A stretch of 14,869 nt of DNA, from assembly GCA_046293555.1 (NCBI GenBank), contig JBKBOT010000035.1, forward strand, positions 1-14,869. The letters run 5' to 3'. This DNA is from Pyrobaculum sp. (GTDB taxonomy: Archaea; Thermoproteota; Thermoprotei; Thermoproteales; Thermoproteaceae). Every line of letters starts with the position of its first letter. Position 1 is the stretch's first letter. The notes under the pieces are model-generated. The model was given only the letters and a program-made list of their open reading frames with translations. It was not told the DNA's origin and did not search any database. Below, one piece after another: positions 3,161-14,869 of this stretch. A program made the translations under genes and the position numbers.

Positions 3161-3216
3161 AATATTTTTGCCTCTTGTCGTATGTAACTTATTTAAACGT
3201 ATGTATATTTAGAGTC

Positions 3217-4188
3217 ATGACAGTGATATACACGCCGGGACACAACTTGGTTACAGATACGTTGATTATACATGGTGTAGTTAAGTACATATCTGTGCTT
3301 GGGGTAAAAAACGCAGTCGTGGAGAGGGTGGGCGAGAGGTATAGAGTTGAGGCGGAGGGTGTGGGTAGTGGGAGGGTGGAGTTTGTTGAGCCCATCGTCA
3401 GAGCTATAAACGTCTATGAGGAATATGGTGATGCCAGGTTGTTAAAGGGCACTGTCACGTATAAGCTCATCCGTGGGGATATAGCGATGGGTGCGATGGG
3501 GCGGCTGCATGTGTTTAAAGCCGGGTTGACGTCTCTCTCTCCCAGCTGGCTGGAGGCGTTTATCGAGAACCATCATTGTGATGGGAAACACGTCCTGCCG
3601 CCGCACCTGTCTGCGGTTTTCAACCTTAGCGGCGAGCGGGGCGTATGTGACGTATGTTTCACCTTTGCAAACCTGGGCTTTCTCTACGGCGCGACTGTAG
3701 CCGTAATGAAGAAGCCGGGGAGGCGCGATGTGGTATACATGGTGCCTACGCCCCGTGGGAGGGCGGCGTGGGAGGATGTCTTCTTGATGCAACAAGTGGC
3801 AAGCTTGTTGGAAATATCTGTGGGGGACGTACCCACCCTGGCGGTGCCCGTGGTGTGGCTTTCGTGGGGCGCTGCGATGGATATCGTGGATGGGCCGTTC
3901 GATCTGTTGGTATGGCGCGTGGAGTCCATCAGGGGGCAGCTGAGGGTTATGGATTGGCACATCTTGGATCTGACCAAGCTTACAGACGTCGTTGTGGAGC
4001 TGTGGGATGGGACTACCGACTGGCCCAGATGTGTCAAGGTCACGCTCTATGGAAATCCACATGTGTTGGCCGATCTTGCTAACTATGCGACCCAAGGCGG
4101 CGATGGGCGTAAGGTGGCTCAAGGCCTGCTGTCTGGAAAAAACACGGCTAGGTTCTGCGCCGGGGCTGTGGAGGTGTTAGCTAAGTGA
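3217..4188 (+). CDS. cas8a2: Stand-alone, divergent type I-A CRISPR large-subunit homologue (Cas8a2/Csa4-like)
   Basis: N-terminal IYTPGHNLVTDTLIIHGVV and central VCDVCFTFANLGFLYG resemble Csa4/Cas8a2 motifs as I recall them (YTPGH...D.LI..G; CxxC..A.LG). Start moved to ATG 3217 because TTTAAAC lies 25 nt upstream. Confidence 0.65.
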   Translation: MTVIYTPGHNLVTDTLIIHGVVKYISVLGVKNAVVERVGERYRVEAEGVGSGRVEFVEPIVRAINVYEEYGDARLLKGTVTYKLIRGDIAMGAMGRLHVFKAGLTSLSPSWLEAFIENHHCDGKHVLPPHLSAVFNLSGERGVCDVCFTFANLGFLYGATVAVMKKPGRRDVVYMVPTPRGRAAWEDVFLMQQVASLLEISVGDVPTLAVPVVWLSWGAAMDIVDGPFDLLVWRVESIRGQLRVMDWHILDLTKLTDVVVELWDGTTDWPRCVKVTLYGNPHVLADLANYATQGGDGRKVAQGLLSGKNTARFCAGAVEVLAK

Positions 4189-5186: not shown

Positions 5187-5693
5187 ATGCCTATAGAAAA
5201 AATCTCAGTAAATAGCCACATTGCACGTGTTAGCGACGTATATCCATTGTTGTGGCTTGGAGAGAACGGCTATGCGATAACCCGCTACGGGAGGCTATAT
5301 ATGCTCGACGGCGAGCCGCTTGGCGTGGAGTATGTGGCAAAGCTGTCGGTCCCACAACGTTTCAACCCGGGCGTCTACATAGTTGGAGGTGGCGTAAAGC
5401 TCGGAGTCTACTACGTGTTGAATGTAGTTAAGGCTGTACGCGATGCGGTGAAGTATATAAACGTGGGGGAGACGCTGGCTGCGGCTGGACTGAAGCGTAC
5501 TACACATGTGGCTATCGTGCAGCACATCGAGACGCCGTATCCCCACACAGTCGATTTACGATATGTAAAAACGCTATTGTCGAACCCCCCGGTTAGATAT
5601 ATGGTGGCGTGTGGGGAGGTATACAAAGTGGTTGGGTGGGTGGATGGCCTAGACCAAATGTTTGCGTGTCATACAGACAACGGTCGTATATAA
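5187..5693 (+). CDS. Hypothetical protein (V/Y/G-rich, alpha/beta)
   Basis: Longest ORF between two AT-rich intergenic gaps; no recognised motif. Confidence 0.75.
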   Translation: MPIEKISVNSHIARVSDVYPLLWLGENGYAITRYGRLYMLDGEPLGVEYVAKLSVPQRFNPGVYIVGGGVKLGVYYVLNVVKAVRDAVKYINVGETLAAAGLKRTTHVAIVQHIETPYPHTVDLRYVKTLLSNPPVRYMVACGEVYKVVGWVDGLDQMFACHTDNGRI

Positions 5694-5743
5694 TATCTCT
5701 AGTTGTCGATATGGACCTTTTTAAATAGACTTTTTTATATATC

Positions 5744-6562
5744 ATGGACCCAATTCAGATCCCAAAGTTTTTAAACATGCATTTTCATAAATCTATGTGC
5801 GATCACAAGCCGATACAGATAGATGGCCAGTATGTATGTGTTGAATGCGGCGAGGTGTTAGGCCAAGTGGTGGACTTGCGGGGCGAGTGGCGTGACCCCG
5901 CATTGAGTCGCACCGGCCTCCTGTATGCCAACACCCCCATTGCGGCCACCTTCATGACGTTTATCAGCCACAAGCCCGGCAGAGATGCAGCCACGCTTAT
6001 AGCCACACAGAGGGCCGGCCTCTACGTGTCGGTAAAGGAGAGGCGGATTGTAAACGTGGCTGTGGAGATAGAGCGTCTAGGCAACATCATGGGCATGCCT
6101 CGACACATACGCCAACGTGCAAAAGAGCTCTACATACAGGCCCTAAACCGCGGCGATGTCCGTTGTAACGCCAAGGCGTCTGCAGCAGCTGCGCTTTATT
6201 TAGCCCTAAAGACCGCCAAGATGCCAAGGAGTTTTGACGAGTTTAAACACATAGAACATACGGGCAGGTGTCTAAACAGGCTAGCAGCAGCGTTGGGCAT
6301 GAAGGTGGGGCCGACAGATAGCGTCTACTACCTCGCAAAGCTTGCAGAGGCGTTGTCGCTCCCAACGAATGTAGTTAAGGCGGCTAAGGAATACATAAAG
6401 TCGGCCAGGAGAAGCGGCCGGACGGCCAAGGTGATTGCTGCTGCGGCTGTCTATAAGGCGGTGAATGAGATGGGGCTCGGGCTGTCCATATCCACTATTG
6501 CCAAGACCGCTGGCACATCGCCAAGCTCCATAAAGGAGGCGGTGGCAGCGATGTGGAAGTGA
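5744..6562 (+). CDS. tfb: Transcription initiation factor IIB (TFB) homologue, divergent
   Basis: Zn ribbon CDH...YVCVECGEV; B-reader-like GEWR..RTG; two cyclin repeats (AAAALYLALK...PRSFDE; SGRTAKVIAAAAVY); C-terminal HTH (ISTIAKTAGTSPSSIK). Alternative start at ATG 5795. Confidence 0.92.
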   Translation: MDPIQIPKFLNMHFHKSMCDHKPIQIDGQYVCVECGEVLGQVVDLRGEWRDPALSRTGLLYANTPIAATFMTFISHKPGRDAATLIATQRAGLYVSVKERRIVNVAVEIERLGNIMGMPRHIRQRAKELYIQALNRGDVRCNAKASAAAALYLALKTAKMPRSFDEFKHIEHTGRCLNRLAAALGMKVGPTDSVYYLAKLAEALSLPTNVVKAAKEYIKSARRSGRTAKVIAAAAVYKAVNEMGLGLSISTIAKTAGTSPSSIKEAVAAMWK

Positions 6563-6840
6563 TGACATATAGCGTTGTGACTAACTGTACCAGGGAGAAG
6601 CTAAGCCGCCCGGCGCCGGCGAGGGAGTTGTATAGGGGATCCTCTGTGAGAAACATCGTAAAGGCGGTAGATGAGGCGAGGGCGGGGGGCGTGGATGTGA
6701 AGCTATACATAATGCCCGCGGTATGTGAGCGGCGGGATGTCTATGTGTTATCGCCATATAGACCTCACTGCGGCGTTTGGATAAAAACCGGCAATTTTGA
6801 CAAACATCTTGTAGTCAAGAGGCTTCTCCTAAATACCTGA
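6562..6840 (+). CDS. DUF6884-like small protein, apparently shortened
   Basis: VVTNCTREKL..PAPARELYRGS resembles the CxxxK...PAxxLYxG motif. TGATG coupling to the tfb stop favours start 6562 over 6553. Confidence 0.5.
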   Translation: MTYSVVTNCTREKLSRPAPARELYRGSSVRNIVKAVDEARAGGVDVKLYIMPAVCERRDVYVLSPYRPHCGVWIKTGNFDKHLVVKRLLLNT

Positions 6841-6865
6841 TTTTTTTAAATCTAATTTTATCTTC

Positions 6866-7963
6866 ATGCGATACTCACTCCCGATCATAATCGCCATATT
6901 GGCGGTAGTCATATATCTGTCTCCCCATCAACACCACCACGTTTATAGTACTGTTTATAGTACATCACCCCCTCAAAACACTACTCCTTTGTTACAACCT
7001 TATGAGCGTGTAAACTCATCGATAATAGAGGACGTCATACAATTCTACCGCTCTAAGAATTTGACAACTCAATGTGGAAAGATAGAGGTGTATTTACGCC
7101 CGGATTTGAGGGGTTACGTCGGCATTGCTGAAGGCTGTACTATATACATAAAGCGTGTAGAGCCTTACGTCATCGCCCACGAGATTGCCCACTTGTTTAT
7201 CCCATTCCGCGGCGATTGGAGGCAGGAGTCGGTGGCTGACGGCATCGCGTTGGCATATCTACACGCCAAGGGTTACGATGTGCCGCGACGTAATGTCGAC
7301 GTGTATTTCACCAAACGGTTGTATGAGAGAAGTCCTTTCGACGCAAAAGAGGAGGAGTGGTACGATTATGCCGCGCCTTTTGCCTGGGTGGCACAAAACA
7401 CGACAGACTGGCGTTGGGCATATCAGCCGGAGGCAGTGTACTTACGTTTTCTTGAGGCGCTTAAGGATTGTGTTACGATTTTTGGCGTCAAGTATTGTCC
7501 GGAGTACACAGAAGTACGTAATGCTTACAACGAGTCCTTCAAGATGGCGCCATATACGGCGCGGTACTTCCGCATAAAAACGTCAGGGGATTTCGTTATC
7601 GTTAGTGACGGCTTTATTGAACGTATCTATCCACCGTCTGTCACAATTGCATATATTGATACTATTGGGAAAATACGTCGAATTGAGATAAGTTACGTCT
7701 ACATCCACGCCACAGCGTTTGTTGCCAAGATTAACGACGTCTACGTCACTGTGGTGTACTTAGAGGAGTCTAAAAACGGCAGACCCTACAAACCGGTAAA
7801 CGGTATACGTGATATAAACGACACTAGCATGATGTTTACAAACGGTATTGCTATATTAAAGACGTGGGAGCGTCCACAAGCTGTGACAATTTATAACAAA
7901 ACGGTAGAGGTTAGGCTTGCGGAACATATTTCAGCGGAGAAAGACAAGATCTGTGTGTCGTAA
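6866..7963 (+). CDS. Secreted or membrane-anchored zinc metallopeptidase (gluzincin-like)
   Basis: N-terminal signal/anchor helix; VIAHEIAH (HEXXH) followed by WRQESVAD (candidate third-ligand Glu); many N-x-S/T sequons (NTT, NSS, NLT, NES, NDT, NKT). Confidence 0.8.
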   Translation: MRYSLPIIIAILAVVIYLSPHQHHHVYSTVYSTSPPQNTTPLLQPYERVNSSIIEDVIQFYRSKNLTTQCGKIEVYLRPDLRGYVGIAEGCTIYIKRVEPYVIAHEIAHLFIPFRGDWRQESVADGIALAYLHAKGYDVPRRNVDVYFTKRLYERSPFDAKEEEWYDYAAPFAWVAQNTTDWRWAYQPEAVYLRFLEALKDCVTIFGVKYCPEYTEVRNAYNESFKMAPYTARYFRIKTSGDFVIVSDGFIERIYPPSVTIAYIDTIGKIRRIEISYVYIHATAFVAKINDVYVTVVYLEESKNGRPYKPVNGIRDINDTSMMFTNGIAILKTWERPQAVTIYNKTVEVRLAEHISAEKDKICVS

Positions 7964-7965
7964 CC

Positions 7966-8541
7966 CTACTCCACCTCTCTATCTCTTTCCCTTTTGCGCC
8001 TAGAGTAGCGCATAAGTAACTTCTTGGCGCGGTCAAGCAACTCGTTTGAATCCACCTCTTTTTCTAGTTCCTTAAGGTATTTTAAGGCATCTCTGGCAGA
8101 TTCCACCATTATTTTTTTCACCTCCTCATCGCCGTCCACCCCTCTTGCGAGGTGGAAGTTTTTAAAGTGGTATATGAAAAGCGCTGTTGCCTTGGGGTTT
8201 GCTGCGAACAGTCTGTGGAGAGATTTGACAACGTCGCGTTTCGACATATCTAGACCCTCGGCAAATACCTCGACGGCATATTCTCCAAGCGTCTCGTGGT
8301 CTATGTATATATAGTCAACCCAACGGGGGCCTCCATACAGCCTCATGGCCAGGCCGAATGTCCTATAGTCGTCAACCAGATTTCTATGTCTTCTCGATTC
8401 AAGATCCTCGTTGTCCTCCACAACTCTGACCCTTCTCTTGGCGGGGGTCTTCACCTCCTCCACCTCTGGCCCTCTTTCTTCCACCTCTAACTCCTCCACC
8501 TCTGGCTCTCTTTCCGCTCTTGTCTTAACCATGCGACCCAT
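7966..8541 (-). CDS. Hypothetical protein with charged, low-complexity N-terminus
   Basis: Start moved from 8670 to ATG 8541, which has TTAAATATA 26 nt upstream (8532 and 8553 are alternatives). E/R-rich N-terminus, helical core. Confidence 0.75.
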   Translation of the reverse strand: MGRMVKTRAEREPEVEELEVEERGPEVEEVKTPAKRRVRVVEDNEDLESRRHRNLVDDYRTFGLAMRLYGGPRWVDYIYIDHETLGEYAVEVFAEGLDMSKRDVVKSLHRLFAANPKATALFIYHFKNFHLARGVDGDEEVKKIMVESARDALKYLKELEKEVDSNELLDRAKKLLMRYSRRKRERDREVE

Positions 8542-8759
8542 GGAGGTGGGCATGTGGATATATTTAACAATTCTACGTGTCTGTAATCTTGGCGTGTGTG
8601 AGATAAAATTTGGGAAAAATAGTATATATATCCATACGATCTTTTGTATATGGCAACACGACGGAAACAAAAAAGAAATAGGAGGAGAGGTTATTGATTT
8701 GGCGCCACTCTATAGTTTGTTATAAACATTCCCTTTTTTATTTATATATTGTTTGAAAC

Positions 8760-9101
8760 ATGGAGATGGAGTTTGTGGATGTAAAGAGGGTGGTAGAACT
8801 GTATATATCTGGCATATCGGTGAACAACATCGCTAACATGTTGGGAGTTGGCACCAAGACGGTGTCTAAGATCTTGCGGAGACATGGCATATATGCCAAA
8901 CCTAAGGTTGTGGTTGAAGTGGAGTGTGTGATGTGTGGCGAGATGGGTTTTTTGACCCCCCTAAGGAGGGGGATATACGTAACACATATAAAAAACGGAA
9001 GGGTTACGCGTTGCTACGTTGGGGACGTGTCTACAGCCATGCGGAGATACCCATCCCTGCGGAAGTACTTCGGCAGTATTTTGAGCTCCGCCACGCCTTG
9101 A
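8760..9101 (+). CDS. HTH plus Zn-finger-like putative DNA-binding protein
   Basis: HTH: VVELYISGISVNNIANMLGVGTKTVSKILRRHG. C-terminal CVMCGEMG.L...IYVTH...RCYVG (CxxC..H..C). TATA spacing favours ATG 8766. Confidence 0.8.
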   Translation: MEMEFVDVKRVVELYISGISVNNIANMLGVGTKTVSKILRRHGIYAKPKVVVEVECVMCGEMGFLTPLRRGIYVTHIKNGRVTRCYVGDVSTAMRRYPSLRKYFGSILSSATP

Positions 9102-9922
9102 CTACATGACAGCTCGCGCTCCAGAGCGCGGAGCACGCCCCAGAGGTGGGGCGCTCTGCGTAACGTTAACATCACCTCGCCGCGGGTCATGTTAAACGTT
9201 TTGGCTAGCGATGTGTAGAGATCGCCGTCATATATCGCACAAAGCTCTCGCCTCAATTGTTCCAACGCCCTGGCGTTGATGTATGTGCCGGCATATTTCA
9301 CGAAGGTCCCCTGCAGATCGTTAAGTGCATCGTATGGCAGTTTTGTCTCTATGAAGAATACAGGCAGATTATGTAATACAGAATTATGTAGCTTCCAGCC
9401 TCCCCCCATCTTTGTCTTCTCCCCTTTCCTCTTCTTGCTCCCACTCTTAACCCTCTTTCTTTTTTCCCTGTCAGCTTGGGTCACCGAGGCGAGTTTTAGT
9501 ATTACCCTAGGCGTGATTCGAGGGACCTCTATTGGGCCTAATATATATTCATCGCCGTTGGTATAGTGTTTTTTCACGACGTAGTATATAACACGTGTGA
9601 TGTGTGGCTTTGGCGGTAACTCCATGTGGAAGAGCCTTGTGAAGACCTTTCTGAATTTGCCAAAGTGATAATACTTAATGCCGCCCTCTTTTAGCACATA
9701 GCCAACCTCTGCCACCAATCTATCGTATAGATCGCGACGTATGTAGACGTTGTTTGCGTTGACGAAGTGGTCCAACAAGCGACACATCCTAGCGGCGTAG
9801 AAGACCTCGTTGTAGTTAAGGCCCATCAGGCGACAGAAGTCTGTCAACACGACGGCATTTTGGAGGAGTTTCTCCATGGCGTTGCATCTCTTTGTGACCC
9901 TGTCTGTTTGGCCATGTGGCAT
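9014..9922 (-). CDS. Basic two-domain hypothetical protein, possibly nucleic-acid binding
   Basis: 302-aa ORF with a K/R-rich linker (REKRKRVKSGSKKRKGEK); TTTATAAA about 25 nt upstream; 88-nt convergent overlap with 8760..9101. Confidence 0.75.
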   Translation of the reverse strand: MPHGQTDRVTKRCNAMEKLLQNAVVLTDFCRLMGLNYNEVFYAARMCRLLDHFVNANNVYIRRDLYDRLVAEVGYVLKEGGIKYYHFGKFRKVFTRLFHMELPPKPHITRVIYYVVKKHYTNGDEYILGPIEVPRITPRVILKLASVTQADREKRKRVKSGSKKRKGEKTKMGGGWKLHNSVLHNLPVFFIETKLPYDALNDLQGTFVKYAGTYINARALEQLRRELCAIYDGDLYTSLAKTFNMTRGEVMLTLRRAPHLWGVLRALERELSCSQGVAELKILPKYFRRDGYLRMAVDTSPT

Positions 9923-10171: not shown

Positions 10172-10419
10172 TGGATCGTTTCGAGGCGGTCGTTGCGACC
10201 GCCGTAGCCATATCTGTCGCCTTTTTTCTCATGGCTCCGTGGAGCGTCCTTACCGCATGCTACCCAATGCAACCGCTTTTGGGGGGCGCGATTGTCTACG
10301 CCATCTTTTCCGTGCTACATGCAAAATATGGAGAGAGGGTGGAGGGGGTTTTCACAAAATTGTTCTTTGTGTTTTTAGTCGCCATGTGGATACTCACCCT
10401 TGCGCCGCCTGTATGTTAA
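10171..10419 (+). CDS. Small 3-TM membrane protein
   Basis: Three hydrophobic segments; TAATG coupling to cc1 copy 2. Confidence 0.75.
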   Translation: MDRFEAVVATAVAISVAFFLMAPWSVLTACYPMQPLLGGAIVYAIFSVLHAKYGERVEGVFTKLFFVFLVAMWILTLAPPVC

Positions 10420-10675
10420 CCATATCATAAATAAGCTGTCTTAAACACAGCCACAGCCTCCCCTTGACGCACAACCTCCTCAACTTTTCCACAGCCTCGA
10501 CGTTGAGAGTGATGGTATGCGATCTGGTGCCCTTGGCCCGCGGCGCCTCTGTGAGGGGTTCTGTGCGGGACATGATGTAGCTCTCGACGCATTTGGACAC
10601 GTTTTCGCCACAGAGCTGTCGGAGTTTCTGCCACACGTCGTCTGGCACTGAGACGAAGGCGTTTACTGTAGACAT
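10394..10675 (-). CDS. Tandem ribbon-helix-helix-like protein (2 units)
   Basis: AFVSVPDDVWQKLRQLCGENVSKCVESYI and HTITLNVEAVEKLRRLC...LCLRQLI. Start set to ATG 10675, overlapping the upstream gene end. Confidence 0.65.
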   Translation of the reverse strand: MSTVNAFVSVPDDVWQKLRQLCGENVSKCVESYIMSRTEPLTEAPRAKGTRSHTITLNVEAVEKLRRLCVKGRLWLCLRQLIYDMVNIQAAQG

Positions 10676-11199
10676 GTCTGCCGCAGAAGCGCGTTTACAC
10701 ACTTGCCGGCCCACTGTTTAAACGTGGAGATCTCGCATTTCTCTACAAGCATCTCCACATGGCGTGGCGATAGGTACAACCTCCTGGGGGCACCGCGCCA
10801 GTTTAGATACGACATGTCTACCCTCTCCGCGGCCTCTATCAGCTCCTCGACGAAGTATTGTAGCTTCTTTCCACCACGTCGCCTGTCGACAGCCCTCCAC
10901 TCAGCCAGCGGGAGCCTCACGGAGATGTGGGCCATCTTCTCGACGGTTGTTTGAAGTCCACGTAACGCCGTGTAGACCGCGGCGGATATACATTTGCTAT
11001 ATGTGGTCCACCCGGCGCAGAGCTCCTCCACCCTCTTTACATCCTTTATACGGACAATTATGGGAGTGCTGTCTACAGGCGGTGCCTCATATGGCTGCGT
11101 GGCCTCGGCTAGGAGCTCCTCAAGACATCGCCTCTTACCGACACACCAAAGTGCAAGTTTTTTGAGAGCCTCCCTGTCTAGAAACATATGTGTAAGCAT
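10663..11199 (-). CDS. Multi ribbon-helix-helix-like protein (about 4 units)
   Basis: Repeated strand-helix-helix units, e.g. HISVRLPLAEWRAVDRRRGGKKLQYFVEELIE and IIVRIKDVKRVEELC...SKCISAAV. Confidence 0.6.
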   Translation of the reverse strand: MLTHMFLDREALKKLALWCVGKRRCLEELLAEATQPYEAPPVDSTPIIVRIKDVKRVEELCAGWTTYSKCISAAVYTALRGLQTTVEKMAHISVRLPLAEWRAVDRRRGGKKLQYFVEELIEAAERVDMSYLNWRGAPRRLYLSPRHVEMLVEKCEISTFKQWAGKCVNALLRQTCLQ

Positions 11200-11239: not shown

Positions 11240-11908
11240 ATGTCTAACAACCCCGCCCAGAGCTACACAGAGATGATGGCTGCGTACCGTAGGTACATAA
11301 GACAGCCCGTCGAAATGTCGAAAAACTACTCCGAGATGATGGCTGCGTACCAACGCAGGGAGAAGATAGAGGCTGAAAAAAACATCAAGAAGAGAGATGA
11401 AACTCCAAAAAACGTCGCAGCCTACAGGATGTTGAAAGGAGATAAAGACATGGAGGACGGTGAGAGGGAAGAGAAGAAGAAAAAGAGGGGGGACTTCCAA
11501 GTCCTGCGGATTGGAGTAGTTCCATGGGGCGTGAGGTATGAGGGCAAGGTATATACATTCAGGGGGATTGCGGATACGAAGTACGTAGACCTTCCAGACG
11601 GCAGGAGGGTCTATGCGATATCAAGCGGTATTAACAACTGGCGTATAGAGGTGGTTGATCCCAGGGAGCTTGGCTACCGGGTCCAGTTTATAGGCGATAA
11701 AGAGGTTCACTACGTGGAGCCCGGCATGGCGGTACAGATAGAGGGCGGAAGCCCATCATACCTGATATATGACGGCAAAAAAGAGTTGGTCAAGAAAGTT
11801 GGCGATATCTACTTCAAAGAGCTCCCAGACGGGCGGGTTGTCCAAATCCGCAAGAGTGGCGCCAGAAGATGGGTGGTGAAGATCGATCGACAGAGGGCCC
11901 TTGAATAA
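11240..11908 (+). CDS. Hypothetical protein with N-terminal helical repeats and a duplicated beta-rich domain
   Basis: SYTEMMAAY / NYSEMMAAY / NVAAY; two copies of Y(E/D)GK...LPDGRxV...SG...W. Confidence 0.85.
   Translation: MSNNPAQSYTEMMAAYRRYIRQPVEMSKNYSEMMAAYQRREKIEAEKNIKKRDETPKNVAAYRMLKGDKDMEDGEREEKKKKRGDFQVLRIGVVPWGVRYEGKVYTFRGIADTKYVDLPDGRRVYAISSGINNWRIEVVDPRELGYRVQFIGDKEVHYVEPGMAVQIEGGSPSYLIYDGKKELVKKVGDIYFKELPDGRVVQIRKSGARRWVVKIDRQRALE
11270..11351 (+). repeat. 19-bp exact direct repeat, 63-bp period
   Basis: GAGATGATGGCTGCGTACC at 11270 and 11333. Confidence 0.9.
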
Positions 11909-11935: not shown

Positions 11936-14452
11936 ATGGATAGGTGGTGGGAGCATGTAGGCCTTTCTATCATCAACAAGCCGAGAGAAGATACCCATGC
12001 CGTCAAGCTGGAGGTCAAAAAGTCGGAAGAAGTAGCCGGCAGGTGGTGGGAGAGGATAAAGCCCGGCGGCCAAGATGGGGGGGCTGGCCGGATGTACACA
12101 CCGCTGCCATCCACCATCTCGGTGAAGCTGCCGGAGCCAGAGAGGCCTTCGGTCAGCGCCCCCGGCGTGGGGAGAGTAGAGAGGCCTCCGAAGGAGCTAC
12201 CGCCACATCCCACATCCACAGAGGAGGCGCCGAGGCACGGCAAACCGACCGCCACACAGCCGGAGTCCACAAAGGAGAGGCCAGATAGGCCCCCAGACAC
12301 AAAACAAAAAGAGGAGCCCAAACCGGCTCCAAGGCTTGAGCCTCCAAAGTCAGAACCTGGGCCGCCACCAAAAGAGGAGTCTCCAAAGAGGCCTCCGGAC
12401 CACATCGTAAGTCCGCCACAGCCTCCAAAAGAGCCTCTAAAGCCGCCCCCTCCACCTAGGCCGGTAGAGCCTCCGATAAAAATACCGCCCTTACATCCAC
12501 CAAGGTCAGAGCCTAGACCAGAGCCTAAGCCGGTATCATCACAGCCGCCGGCTTCAAAACCGGTTCAACCATCTATACAACAAAATAGGACGGAGTCACA
12601 GAGGTCGAGGTCTGAGGGGGGAGATAAATCCAGTGGGCATGGCGGCGACCACAACCGCGTGGTGGATCCATATAGCGACTTCGAGACTTGTGTTAAACAT
12701 TACGGTGCACAACACTGTGAGGACTACTTTGTAAAGAGAAAGATGGGAGAAAACAAGAAGAGGGAAGAGCGGGATCGGTCGCCACAAGTCCAACCACAGC
12801 CTACACCACCACCTACACCACCACGACCACAGCCGTCAAGACCGCCGCCAAAAAACCTCATAGATGGAGAGTACACAACCGTGCCGCAGTTGGAGCGGAA
12901 CAAGGCCGTGTCGTCTAAACAGCCATCTACATCGCCACAGTCCGAACAAGCGTCGTCTAAACAGCCGCCCCCTACCCCCGCGTTTAACCGGCCGAGGAAT
13001 TTGATAGATGGAGAGTACACAACCGTGTTACAACTTGAACGCAATAAGGACACACAGACGTCCAAACCAATGACTTCAAGCCAGCGACCCTCACAACCCA
13101 AGCCTGAGCCGTCTAGGGGGAGTGCGGAGTCGCCCCCCACACCTATGTTCAACCGTCCACGTAATTTAATCGACAACGAAGTTGTTACGGTGCCACAGTT
13201 GGAACGTAACAAACAGCCTCCGACGAGACAACAACAATTGCCAACACCTCCACAACAACCTCAGCCTCCAAAAGAGCCACCAAAGCCAACACCTCCACAA
13301 CCTTCTCCACAACCTCAAATGAGAGAATCAAATATCCCAACTAGGCCTCCGGACCATGTCGTAAGTCCAACACAGCCTCCACCGCCTCCATCTCCACCTC
13401 CAAAGACGGAGCCTCCAAAGACGACAACTACTCAGTCCAGGGCTGAACAACAGAAAACTACAACGACAACCACAGCCGCCAGGCCTCCGGATTACGTCGT
13501 AGGACCACCTCCTCCACCTAGTCCTCCAAAGAAGGAGGAGAAGCCTAAGGAAACTAAGCCGGAGCCTCCAAAGCCATCGCCTCCTCCACCTCCACAGCCA
13601 AAGACAGAGACAAGACCTCAAACACAAACAACGACAACCACAGCCGCGAGGCCGGTGGACTACATCGTAGGGCCTCCATCTCCGCCGAAAACAACTAGTC
13701 AACCTCAGCCCAAGGCTGAGACGGAGCCAACACAGCCTCCATCTCCACCTCCAAAGACGGAGCCTAAGCCGGAGCCTCCAAAAGAGCCTCCAAGGAGGCC
13801 GTCGGATTACATCACAGGTCCGCCACAGCCAAGGCAGGAGGTTCCCACGCGACCGCCTGTACCTATGTTCAACCGGCCCAGAAACCTTATAGACAGCGAA
13901 GTTGTTACGGTACCACAACTGGAGCGGAATAAACAAACCCAACCGCCACGGCACTCTCTACCTCCACAACCACAAAGGCCTACGACGCCGCCCAAGGCTG
14001 AGCCACAGCCGAGGTCTACGACACAGCCGCCTGTCCCAGCGTTTAATCGGCCTAGGAACCTTATAGACAACGAGGTGTCTACGGTGCCACAACTTGAACG
14101 TATCCGTAGCGTGGCTGCTACAAACAGAGTAAGTCAAACCACACGGCCGGCAGTCGCTCAGCCGCCTCCAAGGCAAGAGGTTCAAAAACAACAACCTGCG
14201 GTACCTATGTTCAACCGTCCACGTAATTTAATCGACAACGAAGTTGTTACGGTGCCACAGTTGGAACGTAACAGAGATGTGTCGACACCATCTGCACAAC
14301 CCCCGGCGTCTAAACCGGAACCACCTAGAGAGATACCACGTGCCCCAGAGCCGCCCCCTGCCCCCGCATTTAACCGGCCAAAGAATTTGATAGATGGAGA
14401 GTACACAACCGTGCCGCAGTTGGAGCGGAACAAAAGGATACGGTATATATAA
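11936..14452 (+). CDS. 838-aa Pro/Gln/Thr-rich, largely disordered repeat protein
   Basis: Uninterrupted ORF with 2x RWWE at the N-terminus, 7x (FNRP)(R/K)NLIDxExxTVxQLER and 5x RPxD(H/Y)xx(S/G)P. No signal peptide or TM segment seen. Confidence 0.92.
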   Translation: MDRWWEHVGLSIINKPREDTHAVKLEVKKSEEVAGRWWERIKPGGQDGGAGRMYTPLPSTISVKLPEPERPSVSAPGVGRVERPPKELPPHPTSTEEAPRHGKPTATQPESTKERPDRPPDTKQKEEPKPAPRLEPPKSEPGPPPKEESPKRPPDHIVSPPQPPKEPLKPPPPPRPVEPPIKIPPLHPPRSEPRPEPKPVSSQPPASKPVQPSIQQNRTESQRSRSEGGDKSSGHGGDHNRVVDPYSDFETCVKHYGAQHCEDYFVKRKMGENKKREERDRSPQVQPQPTPPPTPPRPQPSRPPPKNLIDGEYTTVPQLERNKAVSSKQPSTSPQSEQASSKQPPPTPAFNRPRNLIDGEYTTVLQLERNKDTQTSKPMTSSQRPSQPKPEPSRGSAESPPTPMFNRPRNLIDNEVVTVPQLERNKQPPTRQQQLPTPPQQPQPPKEPPKPTPPQPSPQPQMRESNIPTRPPDHVVSPTQPPPPPSPPPKTEPPKTTTTQSRAEQQKTTTTTTAARPPDYVVGPPPPPSPPKKEEKPKETKPEPPKPSPPPPPQPKTETRPQTQTTTTTAARPVDYIVGPPSPPKTTSQPQPKAETEPTQPPSPPPKTEPKPEPPKEPPRRPSDYITGPPQPRQEVPTRPPVPMFNRPRNLIDSEVVTVPQLERNKQTQPPRHSLPPQPQRPTTPPKAEPQPRSTTQPPVPAFNRPRNLIDNEVSTVPQLERIRSVAATNRVSQTTRPAVAQPPPRQEVQKQQPAVPMFNRPRNLIDNEVVTVPQLERNRDVSTPSAQPPASKPEPPREIPRAPEPPPAPAFNRPKNLIDGEYTTVPQLERNKRIRYI
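12848..14436 (+). repeat. Dispersed coding repeat, 7 copies of about 66 bp
   Basis: Copies at about 12848, 12983, 13148, 13868, 14042, 14210 and 14369. 13141-13211 is identical to 14203-14273 (71 bp); 12860-12903 is identical to 14390-14433 (44 bp). Confidence 0.95.
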
Positions 14453-14489: not shown

Positions 14490-14869
14490 ATGGTTAATTG
14501 GTGGGAGCGGTTCAACATAAAGGTGGGATTCGACATGAAGACAGATGAAGAAAAGAAAAAGGAGGTAGCCAAACCACAGCCGCCGGCAAAAGAGGTAGAG
14601 AGGCCGAAAGAACATCCACCAGCCCCAAAGCCGAAAGAAAGGGGGTGGTGGGAAAACTTCAATTTCAGCATTGGATTCGGCACACCGAAAACACCTCCAA
14701 AAGAGGAACCTCCAAGGCCGGAGCCTAAGCCGGTACAACCAGCTCCAAAACCAACACCTCCACAACCACCTAGACAAGAGCCTAGACCACAGCCAACACC
14801 TCCACAACCACCTAGACAAGAGCCTAGACCACAGCCAACACCTCCACAACCACCTAGACAAGAGCCTAG
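14490..14869 (+). CDS. Pro-rich protein related to 11936..14452, 3'-truncated by the window edge (not in ORF track)
   Basis: My translation: MVNWWERFNIKVGFDMKTDEEKKKEVAKPQPPAKEVERPKEHPPAPKPKERGWWENFNFSIGFGTPKTPPKEEPPRPEPKPVQP... TATAAATA lies 25 nt upstream. Confidence 0.88.
   Translation, partial: MVNWWERFNIKVGFDMKTDEEKKKEVAKPQPPAKEVERPKEHPPAPKPKERGWWENFNFSIGFGTPKTPPKEEPPRPEPKPVQPAPKPTPPQPPRQEPRPQPTPPQPPRQEPRPQPTPPQPPRQEP
14751..14869 (+). repeat. Perfect 42-bp tandem repeat (at least 2.8 copies), encoding PTPPQPPRQEPRPQ
   Basis: CCAACACCTCCACAACCACCTAGACAAGAGCCTAGACCACAG at 14751 and 14793, partial at 14835. Confidence 0.95.

Follow-up and report, generated by a model that had tools for sequence, protein, structure and literature searches.

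The DNA considered here, referred to below as the window, makes up an entire contig (C35; 14,869 bp) of a metagenome-assembled genome (MAG) that comprises 145 contigs and 1.75 Mb. Towards its right-hand end, at 11936..14452 on the plus strand, lies a coding sequence with an ATG start and 838 codons before the stop, and its product, which we call P0001, is a proline-rich and basic protein predicted to be disordered. The P0001 gene is genuinely protein-coding and belongs to a mobile element, and its product displays seven copies of a motif, hereafter motif A (xPxFNRPRNLIDxExxTVPQLERNK), that form islands of strong purifying selection amid drifting spacers. The protein contains 24.4% Pro, 8.3% Thr, 8.2% Arg and 8.1% Glu, is also rich in Gln, Ser and Lys, and carries four PPPPP tracts; its isoelectric point (pI) is 9.9, with a net charge of +33 that is spread over all segments. 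The highest Kyte-Doolittle mean over 19 residues is 0.07, and the protein has no hydrophobic segment. The initial annotation of this stretch had seen no export signal, and neither a Sec-type signal nor a membrane segment is present. A single N-x-S/T sequon occurs in the 838 residues, and the composition would fit a soluble, non-glycosylated protein.

The core of motif A (NLIDxExxTVxQLER) starts at residues 307, 355, 410, 650, 708, 764 and 817, and the protein sequence together with a degenerate DNA pattern places the seven copies, all on the plus strand, at 12830..12910, 12974..13054, 13139..13219, 13859..13939, 14033..14113, 14201..14281 and 14360..14440. Seven copies of FNRP(R/K)NLIDxE(Y/V)xTVPQLERN had initially been reported; all seven cores are indeed there, while the full FNRP(R/K) start is found in six only, which together read xPxFNRP(R/K)NLID(G/N/S)E(Y/V)x(T/V)TV(P/L)QLER(N/I)(K/R). 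Copy 1 is partial and lacks FNR, reading SRPPPKNLID, that is, with SRPPPK in place of AFNRPR. Copy 7 is C-terminal, as had been noted, and three residues separate its end from the stop codon. The degenerate DNA pattern finds these seven matches in the window and none in any of 200 dinucleotide-preserving shuffles, and the 6-mer repeat count of P0001 is 6, against a maximum of 3 in 1000 protein shuffles. The spacing of the copies, first described as irregular, turns out to be otherwise: successive cores lie 48, 55, 240, 58, 56 and 53 residues apart, which resolves into one block of three and one of four copies, repeating every 50-56 residues or so and parted by a 240-residue insert. The quasi-regular pitch of 48-58 residues fits an arrayed display of the motif.

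The copies were said to differ mainly at synonymous sites, NLID being written as AAC CTC ATA GAT, AAT TTG ATA GAT, AAT TTA ATC GAC and AAC CTT ATA GAC, and counting bears this out. Codon differences over the 21 copy pairs amount to 207 synonymous against 92 non-synonymous, and for copies 2-7 the Nei-Gojobori method gives a pooled proportion of synonymous differences (pS) of 0.83, which is saturated, and of non-synonymous differences (pN) of 0.15, a ratio of 0.18. In the 22 codons 5' of the same six copies, taken as a control, pS is 0.77 and pN 0.59, from which it follows that the spacers are mutually unrelated. A pN/pS of 0.18 in the core against a spacer pN of 0.59 upholds the earlier suggestion of selection on the peptide, and the combination of saturated pS with low pN indicates that most copies are old and have been maintained by selection. 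The exception is the pair formed by copies 3 and 6, which are identical over 71 nt (13141-13211 = 14203-14273) a sign of recent duplication or gene conversion; the remaining copies, 144-720 nt apart, are 60-85% identical in DNA. Within 12830-14440, copy pairs reach a pS above 1 by Nei-Gojobori counting, and the saturated synonymous divergence, copies 3 and 6 aside, could also reflect selection against recombination between repeats.

These figures also bear on the question of whether the frame might be no gene at all but a by-product of biased composition or repeats. Several long antisense and out-of-frame open reading frames (ORFs) do overlap P0001, owing to its CCN-rich composition. However, the frame stays open for 2.5 kb, the pN/pS of 0.18 on the motif holds in the P0001 frame only, and the paralogous modules described below are conserved as protein. 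An AT-rich, TATA-like box, judged by eye, lies about 20-35 nt 5' of the ATG, as it does before both neighbouring genes, and we regard the by-product explanation as improbable to the point of being negligible.

P0001 holds further modules, none of which appeared in the initial annotation, which likewise lacked the near-regular period of motif A, the paralogues and the mosaic family treated below. Motif B, RPxD(Y/H)(I/V)(V/T)(S/G)PP, occurs in five copies at residues 152, 470, 516, 572 and 621, located on the plus strand at 12377..12439 (RPPDHIVSPP), 13331..13393 (RPPDHVVSPT), 13469..13531 (TTTTTTAARPPDYVVGPP), 13637..13699 (RPVDYIVGPP) and 13784..13846 (RPSDYITGPP). Four of the five sit inside the 240-residue gap between the motif A arrays, at a spacing of 46-56 residues, and two follow directly on runs of 4-6 Thr; pS among the copies is 0.42 and pN 0.19. 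Two RWWE(H/R)(V/I) motifs, shared with the downstream paralogue, stand at the N-terminus: the first (MDRWWEHVGLSII; 11936..11974, plus strand) is modelled by AlphaFold2 as a short helix at residues 2-7, and the second (VAGRWWERIKPGG; 12032..12070, plus strand) as a helix at residues 31-38. Finally, a Cys module beginning DPYSDFETCVKHYGAQHCEDYF (residues 244-281; 12665..12778, plus strand) also occurs in ORFs on contigs C61 and C30. It is modelled as a helical hairpin over residues 249-281, with two Cys eight residues apart, and with a predicted local distance difference test (pLDDT) score of 56-75 over the block it is the sole part of P0001 modelled with some confidence.

The remainder of the protein is predicted to be disordered, as the initial annotation had held. 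AlphaFold2 gives a mean pLDDT of 38.4, with 750 of the 838 residues below 50 and helices only at residues 2-7, 31-38 and 249-281, and the Atlas model (pLDDT 0.36; predicted template-modelling score, pTM, 0.16) agrees with it, the Cys hairpin excepted. Motif A was also modelled separately in AlphaFold2, as a 40-mer with a ten-row alignment made up of the seven P0001 copies and three divergent ones. The mean pLDDT of this model is 66, and about 72 over the motif; a beta-bridge joins R18 to Y25 across the D-G turn, and QLER adopts a single helical turn. The model hints, modestly, that motif A may be a mini-module of hairpin plus turn, one that perhaps takes shape only when bound.

Motif A, motif B and the Cys module are shared with ORFs on other contigs of the same MAG (C61, C130/C29, C60 and C30), and we refer to the proteins so linked as a mosaic-protein family. 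The nearest member is the downstream paralogue (14490..14869, plus strand; open at the contig end), which has two WWE motifs (14490-14530 and 14640-14680) and a Pro-rich body related to the first 220 residues of P0001. Its stretch on C35 ends in perfect 42-nt (14-residue) tandem repeats, present 2.8 times at 14751-14869, and a 39-nt overlap joins the end of the contig to the reverse complement of C61; probably the paralogue continues on C61, and probably the repeats broke the assembly at this point. C61 holds the rest of a Pro-rich ORF, a 381-residue charged protein and a 631-residue open ORF with two copies of motif B and the Cys module. On C130/C29 an extremely Thr-rich protein has motif B together with a diverged version of motif A (GPAMGRPINLIDGTIAAVSPTEL), and on C60 a protein of at least 982 residues, for which no relatives were found, carries two divergent copies of motif A, motif B, Cys modules and an GGPSADALAEQE(R/W)W motif; the divergent form shared by C130 and C60 is GPAMGRPINLIDG....SPTEF.

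The largest member lies on C30, where a 653-residue ORF is followed by one of 3781 residues (L005 8279-19621, plus strand) with the same motifs at its N-terminus, motif B among them. Judged by eye, the giant ORF continues with about eight six-Cys repeats of about 55 residues, a beta-rich region, Gly/Ala-rich hydrophobic segments around residues 1290-1400 and long helical repeats; a search of 60 related genomes and of phage records found no relative. An Atlas feature search with its residues 1001-1800 returned viral hypothetical clusters and large polyvalent, pre-toxin and ejection families (LPD22, PT-TG, P22 gp16), all below the bar of 0.9, which we take as a lead only. Across the ten aligned copies of motif A, positions P2, P7, L10, I11, D12 and E22 are invariant. 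Since the modules recur in the mosaic and giant proteins of related loci, they look like a shared docking vocabulary of an element family. We also note that P0001 ends in KRIRYI, and that similar basic-hydrophobic tails, KRAVAL, KRRAVAL and RGRAVAV, end three mosaic proteins (C30 8239-8259, C60 960-980 and C29 19767-19790); such tails could be a C-terminal recognition tag.

The view that the window is element rather than host DNA, already taken at the outset, rests on spacers of the same MAG. Sixteen contigs of the MAG carry arrays of clustered regularly interspaced short palindromic repeats (CRISPR), all of one repeat type, from which 284 spacers were extracted. Four of these match the window, which identifies the contig as mobile-element DNA: one over 47 of 47 nt at 4098..4144, inside a Csa4-like gene (array contig C71); one partially, over 30 of 31 nt of a spacer of about 44 nt, at 5883..5913, inside a gene like that of transcription factor B (TFB; array contig C98); one over 50 of 51 nt at 7204..7254, inside a gene for a protein with an HExxH motif (array contig C72); and one over 38 of 39 nt at 8801..8839 (array contig C125). 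None of the 284 matches inside P0001. Spacers of the same MAG also match C61 twice (1698-1742 and 2273-2318) and C30 at least three times (3484-3524, 9015-9060 and 15958-15992), so that the bin holds several mobile-element contigs together with host arrays that target them. The element that carries P0001, whether virus or plasmid, belongs to a Pyrobaculum-like Thermoproteales host, and the window is absent from 60 related genomes apart from a host-gene-like stretch of 235 bp (6573-6807). As a separate observation, further same-MAG spacers match C19 (six), C25 (five), C21 (four), C50 (three), C66 and C52.

Outside this MAG the protein is an orphan within the sensitivity of the tools for short motifs, which bounds all the absences reported here. 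P0001 matches no family in Pfam (E<=1), PHROGs or NCBIfam, nothing in 50,697 phage and virus records by megablast and tblastn or in plasmids by megablast, and none of the 60 related genomes; 127 pattern stretches in IMG/VR gave no confirmed match. For residues 226-440, a word-indexed protein search produced 2034 candidates, none of which scored, and a full HMMER scan of 1,835,955,588 representative proteins returned none at E<=0.001. Neither P0001 nor the motif A profile matches anything in the PDB, and an Atlas search with P0001 gave no usable feature match and structural template-modelling (TM) scores of at most 0.16. The motif A DNA pattern is absent from IMG/VR viral contigs, JGI metagenome contigs and 185,579 GTDB genomes, the Cys-module pattern from viral and genome contigs, and a looser variant-motif pattern from viral contigs; the 20 metagenome loci that this looser pattern did find were set aside on inspection of their translations as unrelated high-GC bacterial frames or CobQ-like proteins. 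When a ten-copy profile of motif A was searched against the longer entries of a set of 5.8 billion proteins, two of 7801 candidates were hits, namely the C130 and C60 proteins of the present organism. Conservation in homologues had been set as a check: motif A is conserved among the paralogues of this MAG, the sole place where this is assessable, since a motif found only in this MAG and sample offers no independent lineages for comparison. Among public sequencing runs the locus is found in one only, a hot-spring DNA metagenome that is probably the source sample. Its Logan unitigs cover the ORF piecewise with no mismatches, bar two single-base variants on other contigs, and so confirm the pieces of P0001, the order across repeats being beyond their reach; coming probably from the source sample, this agreement is no independent support.

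We suggest that P0001 is a multivalent short-linear-motif (SLiM) scaffold, a reading to which we would give a little less than an even chance. The predicted disorder, the long selected motifs, the regular pitch, the several classes of motif and the reuse of these motifs within the family all fit it. Short modules, namely the two WWE helices, the Cys hairpin of disulfide type, five copies of motif B and seven of motif A, would be held apart like beads on a string by variable spacers rich in Pro, Thr and Gln. Motif A would be a docking motif that folds on binding, as a small hairpin around the D-G/N/S turn followed by a helical turn at PQLER, and a single P0001 molecule might thereby engage as many as seven molecules of the same folded partner, or gather a polymeric one into clusters, while further partners could be bound through motif B and the WWE helices. 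Its site of action would be the interior of the infected cell or of the particle. The initial annotation had likewise proposed a multivalent scaffold that binds many copies of one partner, still the most economical view; the predicted disorder, the selection, the missing export signal and the element origin all stand, while the partner, the binding, the valency and the location are what we infer, and no partner was found.

Several points weigh against this proposal. A basic, Pro-rich disordered protein could act by its bulk properties, through nucleic-acid binding or condensates, with no specific partner. Extracellular and fibre proteins, too, typically have Thr runs and Pro-rich linkers. There is no RNA run among the public runs with the locus, motif A is confined to this MAG and sample, and the hairpin model is only moderately confident (mean pLDDT 66), being built on ten paralogous rows. 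The first of these points can be cast as an explanation of its own, in which P0001 forms a polycationic condensing or condensate matrix for genome compaction or for a replication or assembly "factory", and the motifs are self-associating stickers. The pI of 9.9, the charge of +33 over all segments, the predicted disorder and a multivalent sticker-spacer layout with regular pitch all suit it; however, sticker models do not require the specificity of a 22-residue motif with six positions invariant among paralogues, and we consider a matrix of this kind quite unlikely.

The Thr runs call for a second alternative, in which P0001 is a virion-surface or extracellular fibre or adhesin with a Pro/Thr stalk, possibly glycosylated, and the motifs are receptor or matrix stickers or cross-linking sites. 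Runs of 4-6 Thr stand directly 5' of copies of motif B, and the related C130/C29 protein is extremely Thr-rich. The gene of that protein ends just 5' of a paralogue of the HExxH gene of the window: the HExxH gene (6866-7963) has an N-terminal membrane anchor, judged by eye, in its product, and its paralogue on the chromosomal contig C29 (18538-19674), 76% identical in DNA, lies directly 3' of the gene for the Thr-rich protein with motifs A and B. Virion proteins of archaeal viruses, moreover, need no signal peptide. On the other side, P0001 has neither signal peptide nor membrane anchor and only one N-glycosylation sequon, searches of Pfam and PHROGs found no structural-protein family, and in the giant paralogue on C30 the same motifs precede the first hydrophobic segments, N-terminal stretches so long being rarely translocated without a signal. 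A fibre or adhesin therefore seems to us unlikely, if with a chance that is far from trivial.

The HExxH protein, encoded 4 kb upstream of P0001, also raises the possibility of a multi-copy peptide precursor, from which seven 22-mers would be excised, perhaps by this protease of the element. Conserved cores in variable spacers, each with a basic residue after it (NK, NR or IR), would be in line with this. However, there is no signal peptide, the flanks P(A/M)F... and ...NK/NR/IR offer neither dibasic nor uniform cleavage sites, the spacers are long (about 30 to 220 residues), the membrane anchor suggests that the HExxH protein acts outside the cell, and large proteins with globular domains harbour one or two copies of this motif internally. 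We hold a precursor to be highly improbable, and P0001 was rejected as a secreted precursor of this type for want of a hydrophobic N-terminus and of dibasic flanks.

The scaffold reading raises the question of what might be bound, and for this the initial annotation had pointed, as a speculation, to actin nucleators, whose architecture the poly-Pro tracts and repeated motifs recall, and to the crenactin of Thermoproteales. The host does encode crenactin (E 5.5e-247 to PDB 4cj7/5ly3). Adjoining it is a 196-residue ORF whose tail, ...ENEWVRILRSKS (LLENEWVRILRSKS), is kept at 19 loci among relatives, and which on the strength of its position and tail we take to be arcadin-2. Arcadin-2 is described as binding crenactin through a C-terminal helix with a tryptophan (PMC5173319), and it is the hydrophobic groove of crenactin to which this conserved helix (xNEWVRILRS) binds. 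It is conceivable that P0001 is a cytoskeleton effector, docking on host crenactin via motif A or the WWE helices and clustering or nucleating it in the manner of tandem-WH2 or EspFu-type effectors; P0001 and its downstream neighbour each begin with two W-W-E-(R/H/N)-hydrophobic helices, and the four PPPPP tracts would also suit such a role. The comparison of the WWE motifs (window 11936-11974, 12032-12070, 14490-14530 and 14640-14680) with the arcadin-2 tail (L017 821-1411, minus strand) was, however, made by eye. Both are short terminal helices with Trp on a Pro-rich linker, and W-x-R-(I/F) is common to the two, but agreement extends to only three of seven positions of a short helix, and the WWE motifs are N-terminal and doubled. 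As for motif A, it has no WH2 features and no Pfam match at E<=1, and it is modelled as a hairpin with a helical turn and not as a WH2-type helix; the proposed link to actin-nucleator architecture finds no support. A complex prediction for crenactin (seven-row alignment) with residues 1-60 of P0001 scored 0.01 against a mark of 0.32 and, made without controls, speaks neither for nor against binding. We regard docking on crenactin in this manner as very improbable. The broader proposition, that the element, in the manner of eukaryotic systems, makes a disordered SLiM effector which captures and clusters some host polymer or machine through seven hairpin-forming docking peptides and Trp-helices, with crenactin as the obvious candidate, strikes us as a long shot.

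Disordered, repeat-bearing proteins are known from several systems, and P0001 appears to lie outside all of the groups with which we compared it, its motifs being long, diverged and selected where those of the others are simple or recent repeats. In tandem-WH2 and related effectors such as EspFu/TccP, VopL/VopF, Spire and Cobl, several binding peptides of about 20 residues alternate with Pro-rich linkers; the protein is disordered and produced by an invader, and its unit repeats every 47-56 residues or so. P0001 resembles them in architecture only, as there is no homology, motif A is not an amphipathic helix followed by LKKT/V, and the host is archaeal. Assignment to the tandem-WH2 nucleators was set aside on the lack of any Pfam family at E<=1 and of LKK(T/V) after any copy of motif A, and assignment to EspFu/TccP-type effectors, which have a 47-residue repeat with a GBD-binding helix, on the lack of a Pfam family and of any match to residues 226-440 among 1.84 billion representatives. 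A TonB-like spanning protein, in which an N-terminal membrane anchor and a C-terminal TonB domain flank an (EP)n(KP)n region, was rejected likewise, there being no anchor (19-residue hydropathy maximum 0.07) and no Pfam family.

Among crenarchaeal virus proteins, TPX of TTV1 is a simple repeat of TP type. TPX, together with ORF567 and ORF1940 of ATV, is presented in the relevant passages of PMC4456609 as a Pro-rich protein abundant during infection, for which recognition of host proteins has been suggested. P0001 shares with these proteins, which crenarchaeal viruses encode, regions rich in Pro (or Pro and Thr), and differs in having specific, diverged motifs of 22 residues between its Pro-rich spacers; tblastn of P0001 against the 50,697 phage and virus records gave no match, in a search under low-complexity filtering and in a collection not verified to include TTV1. 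A second comparison is with the amino-acid tandem repeats (aaTRs) of Borgs, which PMC9879509 describes as disordered regions rich in Pro, Thr, Glu and Lys, encoded by archaeal extrachromosomal elements, built of SLiM-like units and absent from the hosts. The perfect 42-nt repeats of the downstream neighbour (14751-14869) are of this kind. Borg repeats, however, run head-to-tail, are near-perfect in nucleotides and are recent, whereas the copies in P0001 are dispersed at a pitch of about 50 residues with a pS of 0.83. Classification of P0001 as a Borg-type aaTR was rejected on the distance and divergence of its copies, pair 3/6 excepted, and only the 2.8-fold 42-nt array of the neighbour has the feature.

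If P0001 does act through a specific partner, that partner would reveal a machine of the host or element that is targeted by a Thermoproteales mobile element, and multivalent SLiM display would be seen at extreme temperature; if it has none, P0001 would be one more Pro-rich orphan like TPX. SLiMs in disordered proteins are seen mainly as a device of eukaryotes and their viruses, and the manipulation of hosts by crenarchaeal viruses and plasmids, most of whose genes are orphans, is poorly known. As a SLiM-based scaffold for hijacking the host, an effector of this type made by the present element would be the first to be described from archaeal mobile elements; it would work near 90-100 °C, and the same motif vocabulary would then wire giant "polyvalent" element proteins into one interaction network. 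Motif A offers a tractable handle on these questions, comprising 22 residues in seven copies under strong purifying selection, which can be synthesised and used as bait. Searches of the literature on Pro-rich viral, integrated-element and giant proteins of Pyrobaculum and the Thermoproteales turned up nothing relevant to this family.

The other genes of the window are largely orphans too: 8 of 10 ORFs scanned against Pfam have no family, none of the ten belongs to an integrase family, and tRNA scans of the window, C30, C61 and C60 found no tRNA gene. The TFB/TFIIB-like gene (5744-6562, plus strand; Pfam TFIIB 8.5e-14; PHROG 20431, 2.7e-20) has a zinc-ribbon-like N-terminus, and the Csa4/Cas8a2-like gene (3175-4188, plus strand) is supported by a Pfam match at E 9e-30 and an NCBIfam score of 101 bits, below the cut-off of 232.5; neither ORF found a match by tblastn in the phage and virus records. 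The element carries no other cas genes, and a spacer matches the Csa4/Cas8a2-like gene itself perfectly over 47 nt; possibly this gene serves as a decoy or is an anti-CRISPR derivative. The ORF at 6553-6840, to which the host-gene-like stretch of 235 bp belongs, is an internally shortened paralogue of a 153-residue host ORF on C5 (14014-14472), and that at 1333-2040 gives a weak AAA-ATPase match in three Vibrio-phage records (tblastn, E 1e-3). Immediately upstream of P0001, ending 27 nt before it, lies ORF222 (11240..11908, plus strand), which encodes 222 residues with a beta-rich C-terminal half and for which no family was found; it has a local similarity of 19 residues to the 631-residue ORF of C61 (E 0.028), for which we claim no homology, and neither it nor a neighbouring ORF of 302 residues has relatives in IMG/VR. 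On the minus strand within 10394-11199, two overlapping ORFs of 106 and 178 residues consist, as judged by eye, of repeated strand-helix units ending in Cys, which look like serial ribbon-helix-helix motifs. Elsewhere in the bin, the CRISPR-targeted contig C19 (L059) has genes for a helicase of DUF5906/Pox_D5 type (2.5e-14) and for proteins of some 1500 residues with laminin-G/ConA-like stretches (18602-19987, minus strand; 5431-9912, plus strand), and is a separate or linked mobile element of the same bin.

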